From Oscillospiraceae bacterium (GTDB lineage Bacteria; Bacillota; Clostridia; UBA1212), in contig SVJA01000004.1 of assembly GCA_015069195.1 (NCBI GenBank), positions 76,989-140,988 on the forward strand: a stretch of DNA of 64,000 bases, read 5' to 3'. Both the position numbers and the translations under genes were made by a program. Below are positions 49,105 to 64,000 of the stretch, piece after piece (position 1 is the stretch's first letter; each line of letters begins with the position of its first letter). The notes under the pieces were generated by a model. It worked only from the letters and a program-made list of their open reading frames with translations, was not told the origin of the DNA and ran no database searches.

Positions 49105-50511
49105 TTCATCGATTCTGATTAAATTCGCATTTCCCGACTGCCCCGTTGTAACACCGCCGGTAATAACAATTTTATCGCCTTTTTTCAGGTCAAACATACT
49201 CATTGCAATCTTCTGTGCACTGTAAAAAAGAACTTCACTTGAAGGATACTTTTCACACATCGCAGGTGTTACGCCCCAAGAAAGTGCCAGTTTGTGCCAA
49301 GTCTTTTCGTCAGTGGTAAGACCTATGATGTCAACAGGTGAACGGAATCTTGAAACCATTCTGGCAGTCATACCTGAAAGCGAGCAGGCCACGATAGCTT
49401 TTGCGTGGACATCGATAGAAATACCGCAAGTTGCGTGAGACAAAGCATCAACCGTATTATTTATTTCAAAGTCTGAACCGTAGAATATCTTTTTGTAGTC
49501 AATACTTTTTTCTGTGCTCTCTGCAATCTTTGCCATCGTATGAACCGTTTCGACAGGGTATTTACCTGCGGCAGTTTCGCCTGAAAGCATTATGGCACTT
49601 GTGCCGTCGTAAACGGCATTAGCTACATCGGAAATTTCTGCTCGTGTCGGTCTGGGATTCTGTATCATTGACTCAAGCATTTCCGTAGCTGTAATGACTC
49701 GTTTACCGAGCAAACGGCATTTTGTAATGAGTTGTTTCTGAACTGCCGGAAGTTTTTCAAAAGGAATTTCAACTCCCATATCACCACGACCGATCATAAT
49801 GCCTTGACATTCTTCACAGATTTCTTCAATATTGTCGATACCCGGCTGGTTTTCAATCTTTGCAATGAGGTCGGGCATATTATCCGTATGCTGTGACAGA
49901 AAGTTTTTCAAATCAATAAGGTCTTGTTTCTGAGAAACAAAAGAACATGCTATGTAGTCGACATCATTTTGTATACCGAATAGAAGATCTTTTTTGTCCT
50001 GCTCTGAAAGGTAGTCCTGATGAAGAACTTTGCCGGGGAAACTCATACTTTTTCTGTTTTTGAGTTCACCGCCTGATATAACAACAGTCTCAATATTTGC
50101 ACCTTCGATTTTTGTAATCTTAAATGAAAGTAATCCGTTATTGAGAAGAATAGTATCGCCGACTTCTAAATCTTCATTAAGTCTGGGATAACTTACGGAA
50201 ACTATTTTTTCGGTGCCGATAACATCGTCGGTTGTGAATGTGAAAGTGTCGCCGTCTTTCAATTCTATCTGTCCGTTTTCAAAAGTTTTTATTCTGTATT
50301 CCGGACCTTTTGTATCAAGCATAATGGCTATCGGCATATTAAGCTCCGAACGTACTTTTTTGATAAGATTTATCTTCTCCTGGTGTTCTTCGTGAGTTCC
50401 GTGAGAAAAGTTGAGTCTGGCAACGTTCATGCCCGCAAGACACATTTTTTTGAGTATTTCCTCGCTGTCACTTGCAGGGCCTATGGTGCAGACAATTTTT
50501 GTTTTACGCAT
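49099..50511 (-). CDS. pyk: pyruvate kinase
   Basis: KTKIVCTIGP, RLNFSHG, AKIEN, GRGDMG, MLSGETA. Confidence 0.97.
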   Translation of the reverse strand: MRKTKIVCTIGPASDSEEILKKMCLAGMNVARLNFSHGTHEEHQEKINLIKKVRSELNMPIAIMLDTKGPEYRIKTFENGQIELKDGDTFTFTTDDVIGTEKIVSVSYPRLNEDLEVGDTILLNNGLLSFKITKIEGANIETVVISGGELKNRKSMSFPGKVLHQDYLSEQDKKDLLFGIQNDVDYIACSFVSQKQDLIDLKNFLSQHTDNMPDLIAKIENQPGIDNIEEICEECQGIMIGRGDMGVEIPFEKLPAVQKQLITKCRLLGKRVITATEMLESMIQNPRPTRAEISDVANAVYDGTSAIMLSGETAAGKYPVETVHTMAKIAESTEKSIDYKKIFYGSDFEINNTVDALSHATCGISIDVHAKAIVACSLSGMTARMVSRFRSPVDIIGLTTDEKTWHKLALSWGVTPAMCEKYPSSEVLFYSAQKIAMSMFDLKKGDKIVITGGVTTGQSGNANLIRIDEI

Positions 50512-50592
50512 ATATATTACCTCCGAAATTAAAGGATTTATCCAAATCAACTAAGCTACAATAATAATAACATATTTATTTTTAAATTGGTA

Positions 50593-50904
50593 TCAAAAAG
50601 TTGTATTTCTGAATAAACTACAGTCAATAATTTCCGAAAGAAATTTATCTATATCGGCATTTCCGGATGCAAGCAATTCTTTTTGTTCTTTTCTCAAACG
50701 TTTTAATCTGTATTCGAGCTTTGAAGCATTTTGTCTGGTGTCGGTTTCCCAAATACGTTCAATTTTCAAAACTGAGTGGGTGTGTGTATATTTTGCACCT
50801 TTTACGGATTTTGTAGAATGTTCCTCAAAGCGCCGTTTTATATCTGTCGTAATACCTGTGTAAAGCGAATTGTCCTCGCAACGAAGCATGTAGATGTAGT
50901 ACAT
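50593..50904 (-). CDS. GIY-YIG nuclease family protein (YazA-like)
   Basis: YIYMLRC..LYTGIT..RR..EH..GAKYT. Confidence 0.9.
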   Translation of the reverse strand: MYYIYMLRCEDNSLYTGITTDIKRRFEEHSTKSVKGAKYTHTHSVLKIERIWETDTRQNASKLEYRLKRLRKEQKELLASGNADIDKFLSEIIDCSLFRNTTF

Positions 50905-50964
50905 AGGGTGTCCTTGTTCTTGAAAATACTTAGCTGACTAATTACATTTATAGTAATAATAAAA

Positions 50965-51429
50965 CTAACACTTTGAAAAATAATAAAGGATTTGCATATC
51001 TATGTCAAAGTAAAATAATTTATAAACATCAAATTCTTCATAGTTACTGTATTGATTAAAACGTTGCCCTGCTTTTGTGTAGAGATAAAAGAAATCGTCA
51101 GTTGAAACTATCGACTTATCAAAATCGTAATTTTCTTTCCAGTCAACAACTTCTACCCACATTTCAAAGTTTTCAATATGCGCCAGTATTCTTTCTGTGT
51201 CATCGGCTGTGATTTTTCTGAAATAGTCGGTTTCTAACAAATCTTTTTCAGAAACTGATTTGTATCTGTATCGTGCATAGTCGGTATAGTCTCTGAAGCT
51301 ATCTTGTTCGTAAAAAAGTTCGCGGCTTTCATAATCGGGCAATGAATTTATGACGCGTGATGTAGTATCACAACTGCATAAACTGAATAATAAAACAATG
51401 CAAATTAAAAATGCCGCAATTTTTTTCAT
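50965..51429 (-). CDS. putative lipoprotein
   Basis: MKK + hydrophobic stretch + LCSC lipobox. Confidence 0.7.
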   Translation of the reverse strand: MKKIAAFLICIVLLFSLCSCDTTSRVINSLPDYESRELFYEQDSFRDYTDYARYRYKSVSEKDLLETDYFRKITADDTERILAHIENFEMWVEVVDWKENYDFDKSIVSTDDFFYLYTKAGQRFNQYSNYEEFDVYKLFYFDIDMQILYYFSKC

Positions 51430-51733
51430 AGAGATGTCACCTCTGTTTGTTTTTGATTATTAATGTTGAATTAAAAAATAACACTGGGATTATTGTTTGT
51501 CAATAAAAAATTATCGAAAAACAATAATCTGAACGATTCAAATACTGAAATAACGATAAAATAAAGCCGCAAATGCCACACTGACAGGAGATGACGGAGT
51601 GTCAGCGCGGCTTTTGCGACTTTACAGAGGTTTTATTTCCGGCGCCGCATCTTCTCGAGGGATACGGAGAGATGATGCGGCGCTTTGAAATCATATTGTA
51701 AAGGTTGTATTGGTTGAATTTAATTAAAAGTTG

Positions 51734-52726
51734 TTAAATGTATGCCAATTTGTAGAATCTCGGATAGTCTGACAGAAACTGTGCGAGCGTAGTTCTTACG
51801 GCGGAGCCGGGGTCATTGATTGTAAAGTCATCTGCCGTGACAGAACCATTAGCCGTATAGCCTTTGACAAGAACCCAGTGCTGTGTGCCGTAGCTGTTGC
51901 GACTTCCTACGATAACCGCATTTCCGTTTCGAAGTTCCGAAAGGATCTTGCTGAGGTAGTCGCTTGAAGAGTAGAATTTGTACTCTGACGGCCAGTAGAG
52001 AGCACCGCCTGATGTGTAGGAACATTGAGCCTCCGTTTTGTCAGGATAAATCGTTGTACCGGAAATAAAAGACTTGTTCATCGCAACGCAAGTTGTGAGG
52101 CAACCGATTTTGTAGATTGTCTGACCGGAGTTACCGATTTCGTGATATCTCCAACGGCTGTCATACTGCTTGAAGCTCGGCACTGCAAGAGAAATAGTCT
52201 CTGCACTTGAAATACCGCTCGATGAATATTTCTTCACATAGTCCTTGTGAGCAAAACCCGTCTTTATTCCGTTAAAAAGAATTTTGTAAAAGTTGCCTGA
52301 CTCCGAAAGGATTACAACCGAAGTACCTTTGGCAAGTTGCGTGACTAAAGACGCCGAAGTTGATGCCGCACTCCTAATGTTGAGCTTGGTCGAAGCAGTA
52401 TTTACGAACGCTGCATAACTTGATATTTCTTTGATGTAGGCAGCAGAGCAGTAACCGTATGCGCTTGTGGTATACTGAACTTTCCACCAGTTTCCGCTTT
52501 TGGAAACAAGAGTTATGTACGAACCCTTAACAAGCGAAGTTTTAATCGCAGACGACGTTGAAGGGTTGCTTCTGACATTCAATCTGCCTGACGAAATTGC
52601 AACTGTTCCCGCCTTGTAGCTTTCACCGCTCGCTTTCGAGCGTATACTTCCGTTTGTTACAAAAAGTGATGTCAAAATCAAAACGGCAAGTATTAAACTC
52701 AAAGTTTTTTTGACAAATTTTTCCAT
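51734..52726 (-). CDS. secreted 2xSH3b + C39-like cysteine peptidase (putative peptidoglycan hydrolase)
   Basis: LNVRS/LNIRS SH3 repeats; FKQYDSRW, GCLTT, QHWVLV, INDPG. Confidence 0.8.
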   Translation of the reverse strand: MEKFVKKTLSLILAVLILTSLFVTNGSIRSKASGESYKAGTVAISSGRLNVRSNPSTSSAIKTSLVKGSYITLVSKSGNWWKVQYTTSAYGYCSAAYIKEISSYAAFVNTASTKLNIRSAASTSASLVTQLAKGTSVVILSESGNFYKILFNGIKTGFAHKDYVKKYSSSGISSAETISLAVPSFKQYDSRWRYHEIGNSGQTIYKIGCLTTCVAMNKSFISGTTIYPDKTEAQCSYTSGGALYWPSEYKFYSSSDYLSKILSELRNGNAVIVGSRNSYGTQHWVLVKGYTANGSVTADDFTINDPGSAVRTTLAQFLSDYPRFYKLAYI

Positions 52727-52822
52727 AAAATACCTCCGATATCTTTAATTGAATTTCCGCATCGCTTGATGCAACAAAAGGATAACATATGAAACTTCGC
52801 TAGTTAATGTCAATACTTGCCT

Positions 52823-52851
52823 GTATAAAAAAATGACGGATTCAAATACTA
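52823..52851 (+). promoter_or_regulatory. putative forespore (sigmaG/sigmaF) promoter
   Basis: GTATA-N17-AATACTA upstream of the DUF1540-like gene. Confidence 0.45.
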
Positions 52852-52928
52852 AAAACGATAAACCGCGAAGCATAAAAATGATTCAATGCTTCAAAATAAA
52901 ATTTTTGAATTTCAGGAGGAATTTAATT

Positions 52929-53111
52929 ATGAAAAACGGTGGTCAGACAATTAAATGTGACGTAACAACTTGTCAGTACAATGTATCAACTGATTGCAGA
53001 TGTTCTCTTTCCGGTGTGAAAATTTCACCGCGCAAAGGCTGTTCTTCTCACGATTGTGACGAAAGCCTTTGCTCCAGCTACAAATGCAAGGATAATTGTT
53101 GCTACAACTGA
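52929..53111 (+). CDS. small Cys-rich DUF1540-like protein
   Basis: IKCDVTTCQYN..C..I..CSSY; AGGAGG RBS. Confidence 0.75.
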   Translation: MKNGGQTIKCDVTTCQYNVSTDCRCSLSGVKISPRKGCSSHDCDESLCSSYKCKDNCCYN

Positions 53112-53179
53112 TTTACGCAATTTATATTGATTTAAAGAAGATGCGGCGCGCGCCATTGTGACAATACGGGCGCGCGAAA

Positions 53180-53220
53180 CAAAAAGCAGATTTCGGAATT
53201 TCTCCGAAACCTGCTTTTTT
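53180..53220. terminator. bidirectional terminator
   Basis: AAAAAGCAGATTTCGGA..TCCGAAACCTGCTTTTTT. Confidence 0.75.
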
Positions 53221-53261
53221 ATCACAAATTTGTTTTTATTTTATTTCAAGCAAAATTGTTA

Positions 53262-56066
53262 TCAGATTTTGTTAAGAATTGCCATAACTTCAAGGATGCT
53301 CAAAGCGCCGCTTGTTTTGTTATTAACTGCAAGAGCAGCTTTTGCATAAGCACCTGTTACTTTAGAAGCATCTTTGACACCTGCCATAGCAGCAGTAGCG
53401 TCTGCAATGTTTACAGAACCATCACCGTCAACGTCTCCTTCGATAACTATATCGTAGGTTTTGTTACCTGCTGTGACTACCATACCTGTTCCGAGCGTAG
53501 CTGTATTTGCAACTGTTTCTCCGTCTTTTGTGATAGTAGCAGAAGTGCCGAGCAATGTTGTGAGTTCTACGATAGCAGAAGATACTTTTTTACCGCTGAG
53601 TGCTTCAATATCGCTTGTGTTAACTTTTACGATAACCTCGCCGACAGAAGCTTCCTCAATTACGAAATCGTATGAAGCGCTGTCTGCATCAAACATAACG
53701 TTACCTAAGTTGTAAGTGCCTACACTGCCTTTGGCATCGTAAGCTATCCACAATGTGTAGTTACCTGCAGGAATTGTCTGTCCCTTCATTGTACCGCCTA
53801 CGGCAGAAGTTGTAATGTTTCCGCTACCGCTTTTAGCTGTAACAATTGTGTAGAGAAGTGAGCCTGTTGAACCGGGTTTCTGACCTTTTTCATAAAGTCC
53901 GACAAAGAACTCTGCGTTCTGTTTTGTACCCATATAGCTGTCAAGTCCTGAATAAGTGAACATAATGTCATCGCCCACTGCATATGCGGTAGCTCCGGGT
54001 TTAACTGTCGGAGATGTCGGTTTAGAAGAAGTAAATCTTATTGAACGGAGCCAGAGAACGCTGTTTGCGGCAGTTGTGCCGTCAAAGAAGTCGAATCTGA
54101 TCGAGTTAAGATTTCCTGTCCACTTTGAAAGACCTGAAAGGTCTATAACATAATCATGCCACAATCCATCATTATTCCACTGCCAGCCTTTTGCACAATC
54201 TTCGGTAGCACCTGTGATAGAGCCGGGGCAGAGATACATTTTAGCATTTGTGTTGGACGCAGATGTCATAGCAGTTACGATCATATATTTATTTGTAGTA
54301 GCACTCATTGTGCCGAGCAAGCTGTAATCCATAGTGATGCTCGGGTCATCAGATGCAGATGCTGTGATTTTGAGCGCTGTATCACCTTTTTCTGTTGTAG
54401 CCAATGTAATTGTAGCTGCATTTAAAGAACCATTACTTACCCACTGTCCTGCTGCATCGCAGTCAAATACGACATCTGCCGGATCAAGCGATGAAGCGAA
54501 GTCCTGCTCGAATGTTACGGAAACTGTTACATCGGCCGCTTCCATAGTAAATTGGTAAACACAATCTCCACCATTATTCTTTATAGTCTGTGATGTACCG
54601 TAAACAAGGATTTTTGTAGCCTTATAACCTGCAGCCGGTGTAACCTGATAGTTAACTGTTGTACCTGGATAAACATCTGCCGATGTAACATTATTTCCGA
54701 AGTGAACAGTTCCTTGTCCTGCTGCTACTTTCGCTGTCGCTTTGTAGGTAGTAGGTCCCGGCGGAACACTGCCTCTGCCGTATGTGATAGCGGCTGCATG
54801 TGCATCTGAACCGCTTACAGTAATAGTAGCATTACCGTAAACATTACCTGCAGTATCAAATGTTACTACTTTAAATGTACCGGTAGAGCCGTATGCACCA
54901 TAGTTTCCGCCAATCTTACCTGCTTGTAACTGTGTTGTGTAACCTTCTGCAGTAGCATTACCTATGTAATAGTATGCCGGAGCAGAGAAGTATGTAATAG
55001 CTGTAGATTTAGAGTAGCTTGTTGTAGAGTTTGCGAAAAGACCTACATATGAATTCGGTCGTGCACTGTCCGTACGGGCTACGATACCTGCCGGCAATGC
55101 GTATGATGCGGCAGAAGTATATGTCGCATTAGCGTGCCCTGCACCGCCTGTAGAGAAACCGACATTTATAGTACAATTTGCGGAAGGCATTGTGAATGCG
55201 TAAATAGAAGGATTACCGCCGTTCTGAACAGAAAGAGCAGTACCGTTTACAGTAACGGATGTTACTTTGTAGCCGCTTGCCGGAACAGGTCTGAAGAATA
55301 CTGTTGTACCTGCTGCGAATCTAGCAGAAGATACATCATCATAGAAAAATACCGATCCCTGACCACCTGCAACATTAGCTGTTGCTGTGTAGTTTGTGCA
55401 GGATGCTGTAGCTTTTGAAAGCAAGCACCACCAGTCTATTGTGAGATAGTGAGAGTTTATACCGCCGGTGAGCTCTGCCGCTGTCATCCAGTTACCGCCT
55501 GCTGATGAATGTCTTGTATCCCAGTTCGCAGCGGGATCGATAAGAAGATATCTGCCGGATGCAGAATCATAACCTGCGATACACATAAAGTGATTGTAAA
55601 CGTGAACGATGGCAGTACCGCCGTTTTTTAAGTGGTTGATAAATCTGGTGTCACTTACCGTACCGTAATCCATTGTACCTACGGTGAAACCATACTTAGC
55701 ACCAAAAGCTGCCTGAAGAGCGGGATAGATAGTATATCTTGTAGTACCGGATGTACCGTATCCGCCTGTGCTGTACGCCCAAGTAAAAAGATCCTTCAAC
55801 GAAATAATATTTCCGTTAAGGTGGTAAACGGCATTAACGATAGACATAATACCGCAACCGTTTTTCTGAATCGTACAACCTGCACCGCCTGACGGGTCAT
55901 AGTTACCATAGTTTTGGTCAGTCTGGCGGAATACCTGATAGTTTAATGCTGAGCCTGCTGTCGCAGCTTCTGCTGTAATCGCGGTGTCGGAAAGTGTAAC
56001 ACCTGCGAAAACAGAAGTGACAACGAGACAAAGTGCAAGTAAAAAGCTTGTAATTCTCTTACTCAT
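53262..56066 (-). CDS. secreted modular protein A: C39-like peptidase, InlB-B-like repeats, CBM-like domain, dockerin-like C-terminus
   Basis: MSKRI signal peptide; RQTD..GCGIMS..HFM..DPA; DGLWHDYVIDLS; GDVDGDGSVNIAD; start uncertain (track 56108). Confidence 0.8.
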   Translation of the reverse strand: MSKRITSFLLALCLVVTSVFAGVTLSDTAITAEAATAGSALNYQVFRQTDQNYGNYDPSGGAGCTIQKNGCGIMSIVNAVYHLNGNIISLKDLFTWAYSTGGYGTSGTTRYTIYPALQAAFGAKYGFTVGTMDYGTVSDTRFINHLKNGGTAIVHVYNHFMCIAGYDSASGRYLLIDPAANWDTRHSSAGGNWMTAAELTGGINSHYLTIDWWCLLSKATASCTNYTATANVAGGQGSVFFYDDVSSARFAAGTTVFFRPVPASGYKVTSVTVNGTALSVQNGGNPSIYAFTMPSANCTINVGFSTGGAGHANATYTSAASYALPAGIVARTDSARPNSYVGLFANSTTSYSKSTAITYFSAPAYYYIGNATAEGYTTQLQAGKIGGNYGAYGSTGTFKVVTFDTAGNVYGNATITVSGSDAHAAAITYGRGSVPPGPTTYKATAKVAAGQGTVHFGNNVTSADVYPGTTVNYQVTPAAGYKATKILVYGTSQTIKNNGGDCVYQFTMEAADVTVSVTFEQDFASSLDPADVVFDCDAAGQWVSNGSLNAATITLATTEKGDTALKITASASDDPSITMDYSLLGTMSATTNKYMIVTAMTSASNTNAKMYLCPGSITGATEDCAKGWQWNNDGLWHDYVIDLSGLSKWTGNLNSIRFDFFDGTTAANSVLWLRSIRFTSSKPTSPTVKPGATAYAVGDDIMFTYSGLDSYMGTKQNAEFFVGLYEKGQKPGSTGSLLYTIVTAKSGSGNITTSAVGGTMKGQTIPAGNYTLWIAYDAKGSVGTYNLGNVMFDADSASYDFVIEEASVGEVIVKVNTSDIEALSGKKVSSAIVELTTLLGTSATITKDGETVANTATLGTGMVVTAGNKTYDIVIEGDVDGDGSVNIADATAAMAGVKDASKVTGAYAKAALAVNNKTSGALSILEVMAILNKI

Positions 56067-56183
56067 AATGTAGTTTGTCACGCAAAAACGAGCGTAACAA
56101 AAAGTCACATCCTTTCTTTTTTATCAAATAAAAACAATAAACGAGCATGGCTAAAAAGCCATTTTTACCTATTCTATTGAAAA

Positions 56184-56213
56184 TATTTTACTATAATAAT
56201 GGTTGTGTTGTCA
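56184..56213 (-). promoter_or_regulatory. sigmaA-like promoter of gene A
   Basis: TTGACA-N18-TAAAAT. Confidence 0.55.
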
Positions 56214-56215
56214 AC

Positions 56216-56253
56216 AAAAAGGGCTTAGAGGATACATTCCTCTAAGCCCTTTT
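56216..56253 (-). terminator. terminator after gene B
   Basis: AAAAGGGCTTAGAGGA..TCCTCTAAGCCCTTTT. Confidence 0.85.
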
Positions 56254-56279
56254 ATGAAAAGTTAATATGTTGTTTATGA

Positions 56280-58847
56280 TTAAATCTTATTGAGAATTGC
56301 CATTACTTCAAGGATGCTCAAAATGCCTTTTGTCTTGTTATTGCAAGCCAAAGCGGCTTTGGCATATGCACCTGTAATCTTTGTTGCATCTTTGACTCCT
56401 ATCATAGTTGCAACAGCATCTGCTATATTTACAAGTCCGTCTCCGTCAACATCACCTTCGATTATTATGTCATAAGACTTGCCGTTTGAGGTAGCAACCA
56501 TACCTGTTCCGAGAGTAGCAGTGTTTGAAACTGATTCACCGTTTTTTGTAATGGTAGTTGTTGCCCCAAACAATGAGTTAAGTTCTGTAATTGCCGAAGC
56601 TACTGTTTTTCCGCTGGCTGCCTCAATATCGCTTGTGCCTACTTTCACAATAACATCTTCTGTAGTATCTTCTTCTGTTCCGTCTTGGGTACCGTCTTCT
56701 GTGATAACAAAGTCATAAGAAGCACTGCTTGTTGCAAACATAACGTTATTCAAGTTTGTGCTATCCGTAGAGCCTGTTCCGTCATATGCAAGCCACAAAG
56801 TGTAGTTTCCTGCAGGAATTGAAGATCCGAATAATGTTCCTCCTACTGCTGTCTTGGTAAGGTTTATGGTGCCGCTTGTAGCAGTAACGAATGTGTAAAG
56901 GCTGGAACCGATTGCTCCCGGCATTTCACCTTTTTTGTAAAGACCAACAAAGAACAGTGCACCTTGCTCTGTTTCTTTATAACTTTCAAGTCCTGAGTAA
57001 GTGAATGTAATGTCCTGACCTGCTGTGATGCTCGGTGAACCGGCTGTTACGGTCGGTGTACTCGGTTTTGATGTAAGGAATCTTATGGATCTGAGCCAAA
57101 GCTCACTGCCTGTTGCAGTTGTTCCGTCAAAATAGTCAAAACGTATGGAATTGAGATTTCCGGTGAATGTGGAAATACCTGAAAGGTCAATTATATAATC
57201 GTGCCACAAACCGTCATTATTCCACTGCCAGCTCTTTGCACAATCCTCTGTCGCACCTGTGATAGAACCGGGGCAGAAATACATTTTGGCATTCTTATTG
57301 GAGGCGGATGTCATAGCGGTAACTATCATATATTTGTAGTTATCTGTATTAAGCTCCGGAAGCAACGAGTAGTTAAGTGTAAGACCGGGATCATCCGATG
57401 CCGCTGAAATAAGGCTGAGCGCAGTATCATTTTTGGGAGTTACCGAAAGACTAACCGTAGTAGCATTTGCATAGCCGACGCTCGCCCAGTATTTTGATGT
57501 GGAATTATCAAAAACTATATCAGCAGGATCTATAGTGGAATAGTCAATCGTTTCGGGAATATATGTAATGGTCGCAGCGTGTGCGTCCGTTCCGGAAACA
57601 GTAATAGTTACAATATTTGTAACAACGCTTCCGGATGCCGTAAATACCAATACTTTATAAGTACCTGCGACACCGTGTTCACGGAATTTTCCTCCTCTGA
57701 AACCTGTCTGCATATTCAAAGTAGTACCAATAGCTTCCGCATTCTTGTCATAGTATTGTGACGGTGCAGAGTAATAGAAAATGGAGTTTTCTATGGAATA
57801 GTTTGTTTCTGTAGACTTGAAAAGTCCTACAAAAGAATCCGGAGTAGCACTATCTGTACGGACAACGATGCCTTCGGGGTGTGTGAATGTCGCTGAAGAA
57901 GTAAGCATCGAATTCGGCAAAGTCGCTCCTCCTGTTGTAAAGTTAACCGTAACGGTAGCATTAGCTGAAGGCATCACGAATGAATACATATCGGGGTTGC
58001 CGTTGTTTGTCACAGGAATAGAAGTGCCGTTTAAATTGATCGATGATACTTTGTAACCGCTTGCAGGAACAGGTCTGAAAAATACTGTACCGCCTGCTGC
58101 AAATTTTGATGTCGATACATCATTGTAGAAGAATACAGAACCTGAGCCTGAACCTACAGTCGCTGTCGCTGTATAGTTTTTACAAGTAGAGGATGCCTTG
58201 GACAAAAGACACCACCAGTCGATTACAAATCGTTCTGATTCTATACCGCCTTCAAGTTCGTCTGCTGTCATCCAGTTACCTGATATAGAAGACTCTCTTG
58301 CCCAGTTCGGTGCAGAGTCTATAAGAAGAAATCTTCCCGATGCCGGGTCGTAGCCTGCAATACACATAAAGTGACGGTAAACGTGAACGATAGCGACACC
58401 TCCGTTTTGGATATGTGATATAAATGCCGGATCAGTGACTTTTGCATATTTTCTGGTACCGACGGTGAAACCGTACTGAGAACCGAATGCTGCCTGAAGA
58501 TTAGGATAAATAATATCTCTATATGTACCGCTGGAACCGAAACCTCCTGTGCTGTAAGCCCAGTCAAAAAGTTCCTTTAAAGGAATAATATTTCCATTCA
58601 AATAATAAACTGCATTAACGATAGACATAATACCGCAGCCTTTTTCTCTGATAGTAGAGGTTGTACCGCCTGACGGGTCATAGTTTCCGTAAACAGGTTC
58701 TGTCTGACGGAAAACCTGATAGTTTACCGCTGATGTAGCCGCCTCGGAGGTCATGCTGACTTCTTTGCCTGAAAGCTCTGCCACACCTGCAACCGATGTA
58801 ATCACAAGGCAAAATGCAAGTAAAAAGCTTAAAATTCTTTTGGTCAT
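56280..58847 (-). CDS. secreted modular protein B (paralog of A)
   Basis: MTKRI signal peptide, same C39-like/CBM-like/dockerin-like layout; alternative ATGs at 58853 and 58862. Confidence 0.8.
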   Translation of the reverse strand: MTKRILSFLLAFCLVITSVAGVAELSGKEVSMTSEAATSAVNYQVFRQTEPVYGNYDPSGGTTSTIREKGCGIMSIVNAVYYLNGNIIPLKELFDWAYSTGGFGSSGTYRDIIYPNLQAAFGSQYGFTVGTRKYAKVTDPAFISHIQNGGVAIVHVYRHFMCIAGYDPASGRFLLIDSAPNWARESSISGNWMTADELEGGIESERFVIDWWCLLSKASSTCKNYTATATVGSGSGSVFFYNDVSTSKFAAGGTVFFRPVPASGYKVSSINLNGTSIPVTNNGNPDMYSFVMPSANATVTVNFTTGGATLPNSMLTSSATFTHPEGIVVRTDSATPDSFVGLFKSTETNYSIENSIFYYSAPSQYYDKNAEAIGTTLNMQTGFRGGKFREHGVAGTYKVLVFTASGSVVTNIVTITVSGTDAHAATITYIPETIDYSTIDPADIVFDNSTSKYWASVGYANATTVSLSVTPKNDTALSLISAASDDPGLTLNYSLLPELNTDNYKYMIVTAMTSASNKNAKMYFCPGSITGATEDCAKSWQWNNDGLWHDYIIDLSGISTFTGNLNSIRFDYFDGTTATGSELWLRSIRFLTSKPSTPTVTAGSPSITAGQDITFTYSGLESYKETEQGALFFVGLYKKGEMPGAIGSSLYTFVTATSGTINLTKTAVGGTLFGSSIPAGNYTLWLAYDGTGSTDSTNLNNVMFATSSASYDFVITEDGTQDGTEEDTTEDVIVKVGTSDIEAASGKTVASAITELNSLFGATTTITKNGESVSNTATLGTGMVATSNGKSYDIIIEGDVDGDGLVNIADAVATMIGVKDATKITGAYAKAALACNNKTKGILSILEVMAILNKI

Positions 58848-58962
58848 CCCCATATTTGTCATACAACAAGTTGTATGACAAAATTCACCTACTTTCTGTC
58901 AATTTTATTAAACAATAATATGAATCAATGCGGTACAAGCCCGCCGCTTGAAAACTAAATTG

Positions 58963-58992
58963 ATTGTACTTTAAAGGCGGCGGGCTTGTCAA
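58963..58992 (-). promoter_or_regulatory. sigmaA-like promoter of gene B, overlapped by an inverted repeat
   Basis: TTGACA-N18-TACAAT. Confidence 0.55.
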
Positions 58993-59000
58993 TATAAAGA

Positions 59001-59036
59001 GCGGAGCGTGAAGCCCACGAGGGCTTCACGCTCCGC
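59001..59036 (-). terminator. terminator after gene C
   Basis: GCGGAGCGTGAAGCCC-ACGA-GGGCTTCACGCTCCGC. Confidence 0.85.
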
Positions 59037-59073
59037 AACCTAAATTCTACGGATTTTGAAAAAATCTTTTTAA

Positions 59074-62000
59074 TTATTTAAGTGCATTAAGAAGAGCCAT
59101 AACATCAAGAATACTGAGGTTTCCGGAAGTTTTTCCTGAATGCTCGAATGCAGCATCTTTGTGCGCTCCGGCAAGTTTTGAAGTGCCGAGTACATCTGCC
59201 ATAACCGCACTTGCATCAGCTTGTGTAACATCGCCGTCACCATTGACATCGCCTTTGATTACAACTGTATATGTCTTTGTACCTGCGGTAACAATCATAC
59301 CTGTGCCGAGCTTTGTTGTATCTGCTACTGTCTCACCGTCTTTAGTGATTGTTACAGATGCTGTGCTGAGTGATGATTTAAGTTCTGCGATAACATCAGA
59401 TGCCTTTCCGCCGCGTTCGACAAATACGGAAGATTTTCCTGAAGATGCGCCTGTGCCTACTTTGTCAACTACTGACGTAGTCGGAGTTGCGATCTTCTTA
59501 AATGTAGCAGTAACAGTAGAAGTTGCCTTTACAGTAAATGTGGTACCTGAAATCGCGGTACCATTTACAAGGATCTGATTAAGCTCGTAACCTGTGTTAG
59601 GCGTAGCTGTAACTGTAATCGTTGTACCATAGTCAACTGTACCTGTCTTACTGAGTGTAACTTTACCATTGGAAACTGTACCTACAGAAACTGAGTATGT
59701 GAGTTTTGTAAATGTAGCAGTAACAGTGGAAGCCTTTGTTACAGTAAATGTGGTACCTGAGATAGCAGTGCCGTTTACAAGAATCTGGTTAAGCTTGTAT
59801 CCTGTAGCCGGAGTTGCAGTAACGGTAATTGTCGTGTTGTAATCAACATTTCCTGTCTTGGAAAGTGTAACAGTACCGTTTGATACAGTACCTACAGAAA
59901 CCGCATACTGGATTTTTGCAAATGTGACAACAACGGTTGTAGCTTTTGCAGGCATTGTCAAAGTGTAAGTAGCAGCAGCTCCGCTGTTTGTAACAGTAAC
60001 CGCGGTACCGTTTACTTTGATAGAAGAAACTTTATAGCCTGTAGAAGGTGTAACGGTATAAGTTACGGACGCTCCTGATTTACCTGTAATCGATGTGCTG
60101 CCGTTGCTGAATTTGACAGTACCGCTGCCGCTTGAAACAGATGCCGTAGCAGTGTATGTCGCTTCAGAAATCGTAAAGCTGTAAGATGTAGCAGATGCAT
60201 CAAACATAACATTTCCTATGTATGAATTTTCAACTAAGCCTGATGCGTCATAAGCTATCCAAGCTACATATTCTCCTGCGGGGAGGTTCTTTCCTGCCAT
60301 CGGACCACCTGATGCACCTGCAGGGAATGTAAGTGAACCGCTCGTGCCTGTTGTAGCTGCCCACATCTGTGAATCTACAGAACCGGGTTTTTCTCCTTTT
60401 TTATAAATACCTATGAAAGGAATCTGTTTCTGTGCAACAGAGCCATAGCTTCCGAGACCGGAGTAATTCAAAACGATGCTTTCACCGATAGTGTAAGCAG
60501 TCTTATTTGTAGTTACTTTCGGTGCAGACGGAGCTGCTGTGAGGAATCGTATTGAACGGATATAAATAGTTGTGTCTTTAGCTACTGTTTCATTGAAGTA
60601 GTCAAGTCTTATGCTGTTAACTTCACCTTTCCAATTTGAAAGAGCAGAGAGGTTAATAACATAATCATGCCACAAACCGTCATTATTCCATGTTATTGCG
60701 GTTGCGCAGTCTTCCGTAGCACCTTCAATACTGCCTGCAGAAAGATAAAGTCTTGCCTTTGTTATACTTGAAGTGGTCTGCGCTGTGATAATCATGTACT
60801 TGTAATCAGTTGCATTAAGTGAACCGAGCACATTGAAGTCCATGTTGAACCAAGGATCATTTGATGCAGTTGATTTTGCTACCATACACAAATCGCCCTT
60901 AGGAGATGTTCCGAGTGAAATATTTGAATCATTTGTATTTGATTTTAATACCCATTCTACTGCTGCCGGAGTATCAAACACGATGTCGCTCTCCGGTATT
61001 GTATTTGCATTTATATATTTAGCATAGGACGTATGTACAGAAACATATGCATATTGGCCTTTGTATATAATTTTTGCCCAATAAGTGTCCACTATTTCAA
61101 GTGCTGTGATACGTGTTCCGTTCGGAATTTCTGCGAGGACAGTACCTGTAGTAGGAGCAGTTCTTACACTCATAACACCATCTGAACTTGCAATTTCATA
61201 AACACCTTTTTCATAATTGTTTTTCGCAAATGTAACTTCGATTACTGTATTTTTCGCAGGCATTGTGAACTGATAAACATAGTCACCGCCGTTGTTTTTG
61301 ATAGTAACTGCAGTACCGTTCACCTTGATTGAAGAAGCTATGTAACCTGTTGCCGGAGTAACCTGGTAGTTTACTGTCTGACCTACTGTGGCAGTAGCAG
61401 AAGTTACATTATCTCCGAAGTGAACGCTGCCGCTACCGCTTATAACTTTTGCTGTAGTAGTGTAAAGAATTTTTTCAAATGTAACGGAAACAGTTGTAGC
61501 CTTTGCCGGCATAGTAAACTGATAAACGCAATCAGCTCCGCCGTTCTGGATTGTAACAGAAGTTCCGTTCACAAGAATCTTAGATACTTTATAGCCTGCT
61601 GCAGGTGTTGTCTGGTAATTTACTGTCTGACCTACTGTAGCAGTCGTAGAAGTCACATTGTTTCCGAAGTGAACGCTGCCGCTACCGCCTGCAACTTCTG
61701 TCTTTAAGGTGTATGCCGATGCTCCTATTGTGAAATAGCAATACGCGCTCGAACTTGCAAACATAGCATTATTAAGGTTTGCCGAAGATGCTGAGCCCTT
61801 TCCGTCATAAGCAATCCACATCATATATTCGCCTGCAGTAAGACCTGCACTTGTAAGTCCGCCGCCCGCATTTGCTCCTGACGGGAATGAAATCGAACCG
61901 CTTGTTCCGGTTGTAGCAGCCCAATACAAAGAACCTACTGATCCGGGCTTCTGTCCTTTTTTGTAAAGACCTACAAATGGAACAGCATTCTGAATAGGTG

Positions 62001-63672
62001 AAGTGTAGCTTCCGAGTCCGGAGTAGCTTACAGTAATGCTTTCACCCTCGGTATACGTAGTCTTGTTTGTTGTAACTTTCGGTGAAGACGGAGCATCTGT
62101 GAGAAATCTGATGGAACGCAAGTAGAGTGTAGCTCCTGATGCAGTATCTCCATCAAAATAATCAAATCTTATATTGTTAAGATTTCCTTTCCATGTGGAA
62201 AGACTTGAAAGGTTTATAACATAATCGTGCCACAGACCATCATTTGTCCACTGCCATGAAGCGGCACAGTTTTCTGTAGCGCTTGTAATGGAACCGGGGC
62301 AAAGGTACATCTTTGCATTTTTGTTAGCTGCAGATGTTTTTGCCGTTACTATCATATATTTGTAATCTGTTGCACTGAGTGTTCCGAGAACACCGAAATT
62401 CATATTGAATGAAGGATCGTTTGAGGCAGAAGATGTCTTTACCACCATGGCCTTGTCCCCTGACGGACAAGTTCCGAGTGAAACAGATGTAGCATTAGTT
62501 CCTGAAGAACTTACCCATGAAACAGGGTTGCTTGTATCAAAAACGATATCACTTTCGGGAACCGTATTCGTATTTATTTTCTTTGCATATGAAGTTTCTA
62601 TGGATGCATATGCAATCTGACCTTTGTAAACAATCTTTGCCCAATTGGTATTTGTGATTGCTATCGCTGTGAGACGTGTGCCTGCCAGTACCGTTGCGAG
62701 AACAGTACCGTTAACCGGAGCCGATCTGATATTCAGTCCGTTGGAACTTGTAACTTCATAAACACCTGTTGTGTAAGTTGTTTGTACTTGTTTGAATTTT
62801 ACTACAACGCCTATCGGACCGTTTGGCATAGTGAACTGGTATACACAGTCTCCGCCGCCGTTTTTGATTTCAAATGCCGTACCGCCGACAACAATTTCAG
62901 ATGTTGTCCAACCGCTTGCAGGAGTAACCTGGAAGTTTACAGTAGTACCTTGTGAAACCTGTGCAGATGTGACTCCGTTACCGAAGTGAACCGTACCGCT
63001 GCCGCTTGCTACAGATGCTGTCAATGCATATGTAGTCGTAGGATTAGGCTTCGTAGAAGACATCAGACAGTACCAGTCAACAGTAGACAAAGATTTAGAG
63101 TTGAGCTGTGCTGCCGTAAGCCATGTGCCGTAAGGATATGTACCTCTGTTTGTTACGTTTGCCGCAGAGTCATATACAAGATACTGACCGGTAGATCTAT
63201 TATAACCACAGAAGGCCATAAAGTGATTAGGCACGTGTACGATAGCAACACCACCGTTTTCGAGATGTGCTTCAAGCTTACCGCTTGTCGGAAGTTTGCT
63301 CCAAGTAAGATCTGTAATCGTAAAACCATAAGTAGGACCGTATGTAGTGGAAAGCGCAGGGTAGAGTGTATTTCTCATAGTACCCTGACCGTAAGAACCG
63401 TTAAAATGGTTGTTCTGGTATGCCCATTGACCGAGTGTAACAGGATTAATGAAATTTCCTGTGAGGTAGTTTATAGCATTTACTGCGGATAAGATACCGC
63501 AACCTGATGCAGCCATAGTCCAGTTACCAACATAGGTACCGCCCCATCTTGAGTCGCCCTGCTGATAACAAGTGGGTGCTGCTTGTGACTCGACGGGCTT
63601 GCTTGTTACCAAACCGACAGATGTCACGAGTAATGCAAATGCCAAAATGAAACTGAAAATACGTTTCGTCAT
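59074..63672 (-). CDS. secreted modular protein C: C39-like peptidase, 2 SH3b, 2 CBM-like, several InlB-B-like repeats, dockerin-like C-terminus
   Basis: MTKRI signal peptide; YQQGDSRW..GCGILS..HFM..DSA; LNIRSAP; GDVNGDGDVTQAD; start uncertain (track 63762). Confidence 0.8.
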   Translation of the reverse strand: MTKRIFSFILAFALLVTSVGLVTSKPVESQAAPTCYQQGDSRWGGTYVGNWTMAASGCGILSAVNAINYLTGNFINPVTLGQWAYQNNHFNGSYGQGTMRNTLYPALSTTYGPTYGFTITDLTWSKLPTSGKLEAHLENGGVAIVHVPNHFMAFCGYNRSTGQYLVYDSAANVTNRGTYPYGTWLTAAQLNSKSLSTVDWYCLMSSTKPNPTTTYALTASVASGSGTVHFGNGVTSAQVSQGTTVNFQVTPASGWTTSEIVVGGTAFEIKNGGGDCVYQFTMPNGPIGVVVKFKQVQTTYTTGVYEVTSSNGLNIRSAPVNGTVLATVLAGTRLTAIAITNTNWAKIVYKGQIAYASIETSYAKKINTNTVPESDIVFDTSNPVSWVSSSGTNATSVSLGTCPSGDKAMVVKTSSASNDPSFNMNFGVLGTLSATDYKYMIVTAKTSAANKNAKMYLCPGSITSATENCAASWQWTNDGLWHDYVINLSSLSTWKGNLNNIRFDYFDGDTASGATLYLRSIRFLTDAPSSPKVTTNKTTYTEGESITVSYSGLGSYTSPIQNAVPFVGLYKKGQKPGSVGSLYWAATTGTSGSISFPSGANAGGGLTSAGLTAGEYMMWIAYDGKGSASSANLNNAMFASSSAYCYFTIGASAYTLKTEVAGGSGSVHFGNNVTSTTATVGQTVNYQTTPAAGYKVSKILVNGTSVTIQNGGADCVYQFTMPAKATTVSVTFEKILYTTTAKVISGSGSVHFGDNVTSATATVGQTVNYQVTPATGYIASSIKVNGTAVTIKNNGGDYVYQFTMPAKNTVIEVTFAKNNYEKGVYEIASSDGVMSVRTAPTTGTVLAEIPNGTRITALEIVDTYWAKIIYKGQYAYVSVHTSYAKYINANTIPESDIVFDTPAAVEWVLKSNTNDSNISLGTSPKGDLCMVAKSTASNDPWFNMDFNVLGSLNATDYKYMIITAQTTSSITKARLYLSAGSIEGATEDCATAITWNNDGLWHDYVINLSALSNWKGEVNSIRLDYFNETVAKDTTIYIRSIRFLTAAPSAPKVTTNKTAYTIGESIVLNYSGLGSYGSVAQKQIPFIGIYKKGEKPGSVDSQMWAATTGTSGSLTFPAGASGGPMAGKNLPAGEYVAWIAYDASGLVENSYIGNVMFDASATSYSFTISEATYTATASVSSGSGTVKFSNGSTSITGKSGASVTYTVTPSTGYKVSSIKVNGTAVTVTNSGAAATYTLTMPAKATTVVVTFAKIQYAVSVGTVSNGTVTLSKTGNVDYNTTITVTATPATGYKLNQILVNGTAISGTTFTVTKASTVTATFTKLTYSVSVGTVSNGKVTLSKTGTVDYGTTITVTATPNTGYELNQILVNGTAISGTTFTVKATSTVTATFKKIATPTTSVVDKVGTGASSGKSSVFVERGGKASDVIAELKSSLSTASVTITKDGETVADTTKLGTGMIVTAGTKTYTVVIKGDVNGDGDVTQADASAVMADVLGTSKLAGAHKDAAFEHSGKTSGNLSILDVMALLNALK
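59500..59919 (-). repeat. intragenic tandem duplication, 210-bp period
   Basis: AAATGTAGCAGTAACAGT at 59500 and 59710; near-identical 70-aa repeats. Confidence 0.8.
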
Positions 63673-63786
63673 GTGAATATGAAATCTTTGCCGGGACATT
63701 AAAAACCCGCAACGAAAGACTTCTGCCTCCTTTCTGATGCGTTGAAATAAATCAATATACAATAAAAAACATCATATCTAACACAG

Positions 63787-63815
63787 ATGATAACATATTG
63801 AAAAATTGCGGTCAA
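63787..63815 (-). promoter_or_regulatory. sigmaA-like promoter of gene C
   Basis: TTGACC-N17-TATCAT with extended TG. Confidence 0.55.
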
Positions 63816-63882
63816 TGGTGAAAAGGCTTTGTTAACAGAAAGTTATTTTGTTGTATTGTAAGGATTTCGTGAGGCTGGCAAT

Positions 63883-63912
63883 AAAAAACCTCGGCAACTT
63901 TTGTTGCCGAGG
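63883..63912 (-). terminator. terminator of an upstream - strand gene
   Basis: CCTCGGCAAC-TTTT-GTTGCCGAGG flanked by A runs. Confidence 0.75.
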
Positions 63913-63953
63913 GAAAAAAACAAACCTTTTCAGTTTTGATTTTTGATTTTTGA

Positions 63954-63998
63954 TTAGTATTTGCCGTTAACAAAAGATGTACGAGAACCTGTTGCATA
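63954..63998 (-). CDS. probable 3' end of a gene running in from beyond the window (..YATGSRTSFVNGKY*)
   Basis: open frame to the window edge, with a stop followed by a terminator. Confidence 0.35.
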   Translation of the reverse strand, partial: YATGSRTSFVNGKY

Positions 63999-64000
63999 AG

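Follow-up and report, generated by a model that had tools for sequence, protein, structure and literature searches.

Stable hairpins between extended Shine-Dalgarno sequences and start codons suggest split ribosome-binding sites in a secreted peptidase-like family and in housekeeping genes of uncultured Clostridia

We examined the leaders of three paralogous minus-strand genes, here called A, B and C, in a stretch of 64,000 nucleotides (nt) from an Oscillospiraceae bacterium (GenBank assembly GCA_015069195.1, contig SVJA01000004.1, forward-strand positions 76,989 to 140,988); this whole stretch is referred to as the window, and positions are counted from its first letter. In each leader a strong, extended Shine-Dalgarno (SD) sequence is followed by a stable hairpin and then by the AUG, and this layout is conserved and coincides with the absence of an ordinary SD. 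Judging from sequence and predicted fold, each leader is probably a hairpin-bridged (split, or noncontiguous) ribosome-binding site (RBS), as in phage T4 genes 38 and 25. A sequence-only reading of this DNA had proposed an architecture of the T4 gene 25/38 type for the three genes, and it was found here to be conserved at the RNA level in 11 leaders of the gene family and to recur at further, unrelated genes. We infer that the ribosome initiates through this route.

The leader strings were recovered letter for letter and in the same places as first read. With the hairpin set in brackets, the gene A leader (56117-56064, minus strand) runs AGAAAGGATGTGA-CTT-[TTTGTTACGC-TCGTTTTT-GCGTGACAAA]-CTACATT-ATG. 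Its extended SD, AGAAAGGATGTGA (56105..56117, minus strand), matches the complement of the canonical Firmicute 16S 3' end at 12 of 13 positions with a duplex energy of -14.8 kcal/mol, and its spacer hairpin (56074..56101, minus strand; 10 bp and an 8-nt loop) starts 6 nt past the SD core and ends 7 nt ahead of the AUG. The gene B leader (58897-58845, minus strand) runs AGAAAGTAGGTGA-AT-[TTTGTCATACAA-CTTG-TTGTATGACAAA]-TATGGGG-ATG; here the extended SD, AGAAAGTAGGTGA (58885..58897, minus strand), again matches at 12 of 13 positions, and a perfect 12-bp stem with a 4-nt loop (58855..58882, minus strand) starts 5 nt past the core and ends 7 nt ahead of the AUG. In the gene C leader (63735-63670, minus strand) the order is AGAAAGGAGG-CA-[43-nt imperfect hairpin]-ATATTCAC-ATG. 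The SD of this leader, AGAAAGGAGG (63726..63735, minus strand), offers 10 contiguous complementary bases (duplex -16.3 kcal/mol), and the hairpin (63681..63723, minus strand; 15 pairs, internal bulges and a 10-nt loop) starts 2 nt past the core and ends 8 nt ahead of the AUG. One G-U pair was counted in A, none in B and two in C, in agreement with the G-U pairs first read in A and C.

The anti-SD used for this family is what we take to be its 16S 3' end, namely the canonical Firmicute sequence. This assumption is supported by the spacing of strong SDs in the genome itself (2.01-Mb assembly, G000 below), where 634 strong SDs followed by a start show a peak at 8 nt and a mean of 7.6 nt, with 91% within 4-11 nt. 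The SDs of the three leaders had been placed 40-53 nt from the start, and the AUG indeed follows the end of the GGAGG-equivalent core by 41 nt in A, 40 nt in B and 53 nt in C. With the stem looped out, 13, 12 and 10 unpaired nt remain, respectively, the same values as had been estimated. The spacer alone, from the end of the core to the AUG, was folded and compared with 300 dinucleotide shuffles. The folding energy was -13.2 kcal/mol for A (z -4.3, 0/300 shuffles as good), -13.0 kcal/mol for B (z -3.95, 1/300) and -14.7 kcal/mol for C (z -3.09, 2/300). All three hairpins were kept in the minimum-energy fold of contexts of 81-91 nt, at weaker significance (z -2.3 for A and -2.5 for B at 81 nt, and -0.85 for C at 91 nt).

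In the mechanism that we propose, the 30S subunit would dock on the unusually long SD, with its 10-13 complementary bases, while the spacer would form a stable helix that remains intact, looped out of the path of the mRNA. The 4-15 unpaired nt left between SD and AUG across such leaders would then allow the AUG to reach the P site, and the folded helix would also hide competing TTG and ATG codons within itself.

A tblastn search with the N-terminal 220 residues as query found 10 paralogs in G000. The SD-hairpin-ATG layout is present in eight of these and in all three copies of the sister genome G001, the only other genome of the genus among those compared, giving 11 leaders. The whole spacer forms one closed helix domain in 11/11 of them; the linear distance from SD to AUG is 35-76 nt, and the unpaired remainder is 13, 12, 10, 4, 5, 8, 9, 10, 14, 10 and 7 nt. 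The stems have energies of -12 to -22 kcal/mol at 37 C, and in 10 of the 11 leaders they are significant against shuffles (z -2.8 to -5.4, p <= 0.017). The two hairpin-less paralogs of G000, both on contig C2, carry an ordinary SD 6-8 nt before the ATG. Close relatives of the family are few. A search of 41 related genomes gave matches only in G000, G001 and G016 (one partial), a search of genome contigs gave 23 family loci of which only three, the G001 copies, are close, and 24 loci found on metagenome contigs are all at most 41% identical in their best segment. Among the distant homologs from other bacterial families, all 19 genome loci with an assignable start have an ordinary SD near it (no start was assigned for L029), as do all seven metagenome homologs with a start (eight of the 24 reach the N-terminus and were examined; L037 has no start). 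In these 26 of 26 the SD lies roughly 5-16 nt from the start with no hairpin between. Among the paralogs and distant homologs compared, then, distal SD and hairpin always occur together, and absence of the hairpin always goes with a local SD. No alternative SD at normal spacing was found in the split genes, as judged from duplex energies for the hits of the strict scan described below and by inspection for the others; the local duplex near their AUG is -1.3 to -5.8 kcal/mol, compared with -11.6 to -16.3 kcal/mol for the distal SD.

The coincidence of hairpin and missing local SD bears on a reading in which the distal SD and/or the hairpin would act as a stabiliser that blocks 5'-to-3' decay, the AUG being recognised without an SD. 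The model for such an element is the STAB-SD of Bacillus thuringiensis cryIIIA, which is accompanied by a distinct RBS at normal spacing and affects mRNA stability. The leaders described here resemble it in having a strong SD-like sequence in a Firmicute 5' untranslated region (UTR), far from the start codon. Their SDs are also among the strongest of the genome (A matches at 12/13, and only 44 sites reach 11/13), and promoter prediction puts the length of the leaders at about 110 nt. They differ in that no local SD, and so no second RBS, is found at the start codon and the hairpin ties the SD to the AUG. A stabiliser would give no reason for the foot of the helix to lie 3-14 nt from the AUG in all 27 leaders assembled below, nor for its presence to coincide with loss of the local SD, which hairpin-less paralogs and homologs always keep; moreover, the SD would lie about 60 nt inside the predicted transcript and not at its 5' end. 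We consider this explanation improbable.

The sequence-only reading had suggested a search of the genome for other SD-hairpin-AUG leaders, and this yielded further cases at clpX, ychF, pfp (PPi-phosphofructokinase-like) and an ABC-transporter ATPase gene. In the strict scan, a site required an SD duplex of <= -11.5 kcal/mol; no long open reading frame (ORF) was allowed to start at 3-13 nt beyond it, and an ATG at 25-81 nt had to open one of >= 150 codons. The closed helix had to start <= 6 nt from the core and stop short of the ATG by 3-14 nt, with a shuffle p <= 0.03. The whole G000 assembly gave 10 matches, compared with 464 canonical strong-SD genes (a rate of roughly 2%), and nine of the matches are credible: five peptidase paralogs, clpX, ychF, pfp and the ABC ATPase gene. 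The tenth, recA, was rejected as a false positive since its true start and SD lie inside the supposed hairpin. These filters dropped the known paralogs C, F and G. A first criterion of an SD match of >= 11/13 had been too strict, as so few sites in the genome reach it, and a hairpin-first scan gave 115 matches dominated by real starts inside the supposed hairpin. The strict scan gave no match in 370 kb of G016 (154 canonical genes) or in 400 kb of G015 (125 canonical genes). The G001 contigs that were scanned had been chosen for known cases, and their five matches are not an independent rate.

Within the family of genomes to which G000 belongs, each of the four housekeeping genes is split in some members and canonical in others. 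Split leaders were found for clpX in G000, G001 and G005 (canonical in G003 and G007), for ychF in G000, G001, G002, G007 and G008 (canonical in G003, G004, G006 and G009), for the ABC ATPase gene in G000 and G001 (canonical in G002 and G003), and for pfp in G000, G002, G003, G005, G008 and G010 (canonical in G006 and G009). The orthologues outside the family, drawn from G012, G013, G015 and G016 with one to four genomes per gene, were all canonical. The 16 split housekeeping leaders have a linear spacing of 29-69 nt. Like the 11 family leaders, they thus show an SD that is too distant, no local SD and a hairpin that fills the spacer, as at T4 genes 38 and 25, and the total comes to 27 split leaders in nine genomes and three genera of the family. 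Stems are unrelated between genera, and for ychF the stem sequence is entirely different even between G000 and G001, whose proteins are 97% identical. In 23 of the 27 leaders the shuffle p is <= 0.05 in at least one run, the exceptions being paralog G, pfp_G005 and ychF_G002, with pfp_G002 borderline.

It might be asked whether such arrangements have any function, or are chance structures or remnants of palindromic repeats beside an incidental far SD; under a lenient criterion they do turn up in about 9% of shuffled spacers, or 20.2 expected for 215 SD/start pairs. This reading is already disfavoured by the shuffle significance of 10 of the 11 family leaders, by hairpin sequences that are unique in the genome, by the retention of the layout in orthologs with changed stems and by its perfect anticorrelation with a local SD, and we find it hardly credible. 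A bolder reading goes the other way: hairpin-split RBSs would be a lineage-wide trait of this uncultured Clostridia family that has arisen repeatedly (in two peptidase leader classes, clpX, ychF, pfp and the ABC ATPase gene) and is maintained in essential genes. We hold this as a tentative and rather doubtful possibility. If true, it would imply either initiation machinery that tolerates or prefers a looped-out helix beside the SD, or a trans-acting factor that reads SD-adjacent helices and co-regulates the genes that carry them; the data neither show nor contradict such machinery or such a factor.

Across the 27 leaders the linear spacing ranges from 29 to 76 nt (mean 45.8, sd 12.8), and the looped-out spacing from 4 to 15 nt (mean 10.6, sd 2.8), the two being uncorrelated (r = -0.18). 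One closed helix domain is present in 27/27, with its foot 3-14 nt from the AUG. ATG triplets are distributed unevenly in these leaders: 19 occur in 951 nt of hairpin, about as base composition predicts, and one in 286 nt of unpaired flank, the in-frame ATG that follows the gene B stem (Poisson 0.022, Fisher 0.06). The scarcity of ATG in the flanks but not in the hairpins favours a helix that stays folded over one that is melted. This bears on a competitor to the looped-out helix, namely standby or sliding, in which the distal SD would capture the 30S subunit, the hairpin would melt, and the subunit would slide or scan to the AUG, with the helix delaying or tuning initiation. Standby and sliding at structured 5' UTRs are described in PMC3936740; a strong distal SD with no local SD fits this route equally well, and looped-out spacings on the long side fit it too. 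Sliding, however, needs no constraint on the position of the helix, whose foot stays within 3-14 nt of the AUG despite spacers of 29-76 nt, and a sliding subunit would first meet the 19 hairpin ATGs, several of them out of frame, while the flanks are nearly free of ATG. On balance we judge standby or sliding to be unlikely.

The family leaders fall into two classes. Class I comprises A, L008 (the G001 orthologue of A), B, E, F and H, with a TTTGT.../...ACAAA-like or GTTGCC-like stem base, and class II comprises C, D, G, L009 and L010, with the common stem base ...TCT.../...AGATTT.... The N-terminal domains were placed in a maximum-likelihood tree, midpoint-rooted only for drawing, where the leader classes correspond to two deep protein clades and L011, a canonical outgroup homologue, falls with the class II clade. 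Paralog D (G000:C5:6706(-) = L001, 2235 amino acids) is a mosaic: its leader is of class II, like that of gene C, and its protein is of clade I, with an N-terminal domain 84% identical to that of gene A and grouping with gene A in the tree. This suggests recombination between paralogs near the start codon.

The earlier claim that the stems differ while pairing is kept is supported, and a structure-anchored comparison of the family leaders shows apparent both-sided changes. Among A, L008, B and E such changes occur at three of 12 stem pairs (C-G to U-A and G-C to A-U, for instance), and between the orthologs C and L009 at three of nine basal pairs; these counts are a manual reading of alignments anchored on the helix base or on a small covariance model and are not a statistical test. 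The sequences are too few for statistics of the R-scape type, and the peptidase family has close relatives in only one sister genome. A covariance model built from L008 and gene B (R1) re-found A (28.9 bits), F (21.0) and E (16.4), gave no match to H or to any class II leader, and also matched the antisense of the gene B palindrome and two spurious sites. G-U pairs number 27 over the 11 hairpins, and because a G-U pair is an A-C mismatch on the other strand, an RNA structure is favoured over a DNA operator, as the sequence-only reading had argued. A DNA operator palindrome is further disfavoured by the different stem sequences of the paralogs.

Two other candidate identities for the hairpins were rejected. 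A mobile palindromic insert was ruled out, as each hairpin sequence occurs only once in the genome and is not a repeat copy. As for a terminator or attenuator, what comes directly after the stem is CTACATT in A, TATGGGG in B and ATATTCAC in C, with no U run, and the terminator scan was silent there. The only exception among the leaders is that of G000 pfp (G000:C21:21591-21643 = L058:148-200), whose hairpin, with the U-rich run TTTATTTTTGTT after it, also resembles an intrinsic terminator or attenuator; in the five other genomes with a split pfp leader no U run follows the hairpin.

The sequence-only reading had gone on to suggest that a protein, a small RNA or temperature might regulate initiation through these elements, and that they control potentially lytic enzymes in particular. 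Neither suggestion was supported. In such a gate, one of these signals would set hairpin formation or access to the SD and so switch translation on or off. In favour of a gate, folds of longer context predict a largely paired SD core, and the helices of leaders A and H can lengthen to take in the SD and the bases just 5' of the AUG. Against it, loops and stems share no common sequence that a shared factor could recognise, and the stems are stable at 37 C. RNA thermometers of the ROSE or fourU type sequester the SD and/or AUG in a temperature-labile hairpin; in the leaders studied here, both SD and AUG lie outside the spacer helix. No relevant Rfam 15 match was found in positions 50000-64000 of the window at E <= 1, and none at E <= 0.1 in 19 loci with other leaders. 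The layout is also present at the constitutive housekeeping genes clpX, ychF, pfp and the ABC ATPase gene, and it is therefore not a control device specific to the peptidases. We give a regulated gate only a small chance.

Several observations weigh against the split RBS as we propose it. Partition-function folds of the longer leaders predict a mostly paired SD core, its unpaired probability being 0.17-0.54. The mean looped-out spacing of 10.6 nt is at the long edge of the canonical range (mean 7.6 nt), with the width of the helix base not yet allowed for. No 16S gene was found in the 12 species-representative genomes of the family (searched with a motif in G000, with a pattern, and with RF00177 in all 12), while 14 of 14 control genomes gave a match; a missing 16S rRNA gene is a common gap in assemblies of metagenome-assembled genomes. 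Alignment with MAFFT followed by RNAalifold gave no family consensus helix for class I (n=6), class II (n=5) or four close class I leaders, in which the stems are out of register, and the same procedure on three ychF leaders found the helix with 0 both-sided changes. The 11 family leaders are paralogs and orthologs and not independent events, and stem bases share sequence within a class. Hairpin significance is lacking for paralog G (z -1.5, p 0.077) and, taken singly, for pfp_G005 (p 0.22) and ychF_G002 (p 0.13), and it is borderline for pfp_G002 (0.037 and 0.057 in two runs). Under the lenient criterion the genome-wide excess is small, with 30 observed against the 20.2 expected. The contrast with the outgroup scans has a Fisher value of 0.03 if paralogs are counted separately (9 vs 0), but of 0.16 if they are counted once (5 vs 0). 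Gene B has a second in-frame ATG (58853-58851) only 1 nt past the stem, which is a possible alternative start. In addition, a TTG follows the SD core at a distance of 3-8 nt in all six class I leaders, and in three of them (A, E and H) the short ORF that it opens ends -2 to +5 nt from the main AUG, as would fit reinitiation; F contains in-frame TTG/ATG codons that would create an N-terminal extension.

The class I codons are the basis for a further explanation, coupling to an upstream ORF, in which the SD would serve a short leader ORF starting at the adjacent TTG or ATG, and ribosomes that terminate near the main AUG would reinitiate there. The ORF of A has 13 codons with its stop at +5, that of E has nine codons and ends in TGATG, and that of H ends in an ATGA overlap; by manual reading, the G000 clpX leader also holds an 8-codon ORF with TAG directly before the ATG. 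Such ORFs are nevertheless present in only three or four of the 11 family leaders and are not conserved. The class II leaders (C, D, G, L009 and L010) lack an ATG, GTG or TTG at 3-11 nt, the only near TTG of D being at 2 nt and opening a 4-codon ORF, and the ychF and ABC leaders have no such start. In B the ORF would run for 67 codons in the +1 frame, ending 167 nt beyond the main AUG; in F it is in frame, and in the orthologue L008 it stops 14 nt upstream of the main start. No conservation is seen between the peptides of the orthologs A and L008, and a 1-nt loop deletion in G001 puts the short clpX ORF out of register. A TGA overlap is, moreover, automatic for any ORF in that frame, as the genes begin with ATGA or similar. 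The class I TTG lies within the 5' arm of the stem and would thus be masked when the helix forms. Coupling of this kind appears very improbable.

Split translation initiation regions (TIRs) in T4 were reportedly treated by Gold (1988), Nivinskas et al. (1999) and Malys and Nivinskas (2009), as later papers cite them. In the literature consulted, split RBSs appear as rare oddities: they are described as proven for two T4 genes (PMC3014915), and such TIRs are called rare (PMC7297116). Folding shortens a spacing of 22 nt to 5 nt at gene 38 and one of 27 nt to 11 nt at gene 25; both cases have support from mutations (PMC3014915, PMC7297116), and gene 25 has support from probing as well (PMC3014915, PMC7297116, PMC3936740). 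The leaders described here share with these genes an SD that is too far from the start, a stable hairpin in the spacer and a spacing restored by folding (here from 29-76 to 4-15 nt); in both cases the structure is conserved only in a narrow clade, with an ordinary RBS in more distant relatives. They differ from the T4 genes in being cellular chromosomal genes known from sequence alone, in having much longer and sometimes branched spacers of up to 25 pairs in 76 nt and SDs extended to 10-13 bases, and in comprising eight paralogs of one family and at least four unrelated housekeeping genes in three genera. The noncontiguous TIRs of Escherichia coli thrS and rpmE also tolerate a long stable stem-loop that arranges the elements of the ribosome-binding region, and at the thrS operator the ribosome accommodates a long hairpin without unfolding it (PMC7297116, PMC3936740). 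At thrS and rpmE the SD has normal spacing, the hairpin sets it apart from an AU-rich or single-stranded enhancer farther upstream, and the same hairpin serves as a repressor operator, whereas here the hairpin lies between SD and AUG and no repressor is evident.

A literature search with a limited library and limited terms found no split RBSs in Clostridia, no genome-wide set and no lineage with many of them, its matches being confined to the T4 cases and noncontiguous TIRs of the thrS/rpmE type. The mechanism is already known, and the leaders described here are probably a new and unusually rich cellular example of it. They provide 27 natural examples in nine related genomes, at a large secreted-enzyme family and at housekeeping genes, with spacers of 29-76 nt and unrelated stems, and they amount to a natural mutagenesis series on the size of helix that the 30S platform accommodates and the looped-out spacing that is allowed.

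The split layout also affects how the starts of these genes are called. As first read, no in-frame start codon lies at normal spacing from the SD in A, B or C; in-frame codons do occur elsewhere in the leaders, namely a GTG within the SD of gene A (56108), an ATG in the 3' arm of the gene B hairpin (58862) and an ATG in the loop of the gene C hairpin (63699-63697). Support for the proposed start at M[ST]KRI comes from the alignments, as all 10 paralogs and the distant homologs begin at that point. From this start, gene A (53262..56066, minus strand; AUG 56066-56064) encodes 934 amino acids (MSKRI...), gene B (56280..58847, minus strand; AUG 58847-58845) encodes 855 (MTKRI...) and gene C (59074..63672, minus strand; AUG 63672-63670) encodes 1532 (MTKRI...). 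Mechanical ORF calling puts the starts upstream of this point, at GTG 56108 for A, ATG 58862 for B and TTG 63762 for C, and the N-termini in automated annotation of the three genes are probably wrong. Starts of this type are likely to be mis-called by gene finders, which would leave spurious residues ahead of signal peptides. An in-frame N-terminal extension was rejected for all leaders except F, where it is possible.

All three proteins have a signal-peptide-like N-terminus and a Cys/His domain that matches Peptidase_C39_2. Gene A adds a dockerin-like C-terminus, and gene C adds Flg_new_2 repeats, SH3_3 and a dockerin-like C-terminus. The peptidase half of the "dockerin-peptidase" label first given to these proteins stands, with a Peptidase_C39_2 score of 26.7 bits against a cut-off of 24 when the N-terminal domain is scanned alone. 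The dockerin half falls short in Pfam, where Dockerin_1 is sub-threshold at 13.8-21.0 bits against a cut-off of 22.9.

Promoters and terminators in the window were called from consensus matches only. A sigma-70-type promoter is predicted for gene A at 56185..56214 (minus strand; TTGACA, 18 nt, TAAAAT; 11/12), and promoters are likewise predicted for gene B at 58963..58992 (minus strand; TTGACA, 18 nt, TACAAT; 11/12) and for gene C at 63787..63815 (minus strand; TTGACC, 17 nt, TATCAT, with an extended TG; 10/12). They lie about 110 nt upstream of the AUG, giving the leader length mentioned above. A terminator-like hairpin was found by the terminator scan at 59001..59036 (minus strand), 3' of gene C and 5' of the gene B promoter, with a similar one upstream of gene C (63912-63889, minus strand). 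Since a terminator-like hairpin follows the preceding gene and a predicted promoter lies near each, genes A, B and C each appear to be their own transcription unit.

Some smaller features were noted around these predicted promoters. A 9-bp G+C-rich inverted repeat, GCCCGCCGC...GCGGCGGGC (58939-58985, minus strand), flanks the predicted -10 of gene B (TACAAT, 58968-58963) and the likely transcription start. If the promoter is right, only the 3' arm of this repeat would be transcribed, and the repeat could act at the DNA level; alternatively, the promoter may be miscalled. The gene A leader has a small stem-loop, ATGGCT-TTTT-AGCCAT (56147-56162, minus strand), close to its predicted 5' end, and its G001 orthologue L008 has a comparable one, ATGGC-GTGT-GCCAT, upstream of position 550. 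The gene A stem-loop may be a 5'-terminal stabilising hairpin.

Elsewhere in G000, a very small hydrophobic ORF (M..YE.L...) is present in at least seven copies, at C2:64152(-), C5:113565(+), C5:54798(-), C17:26923(+), C21:60075(-), C22:186174(-) and C23:83221(+), each with a near-perfect extended SD (AGGAGGTGAT-like) before it at normal spacing. The copies may form a family of small membrane peptides that possibly resemble holins or type I toxins.

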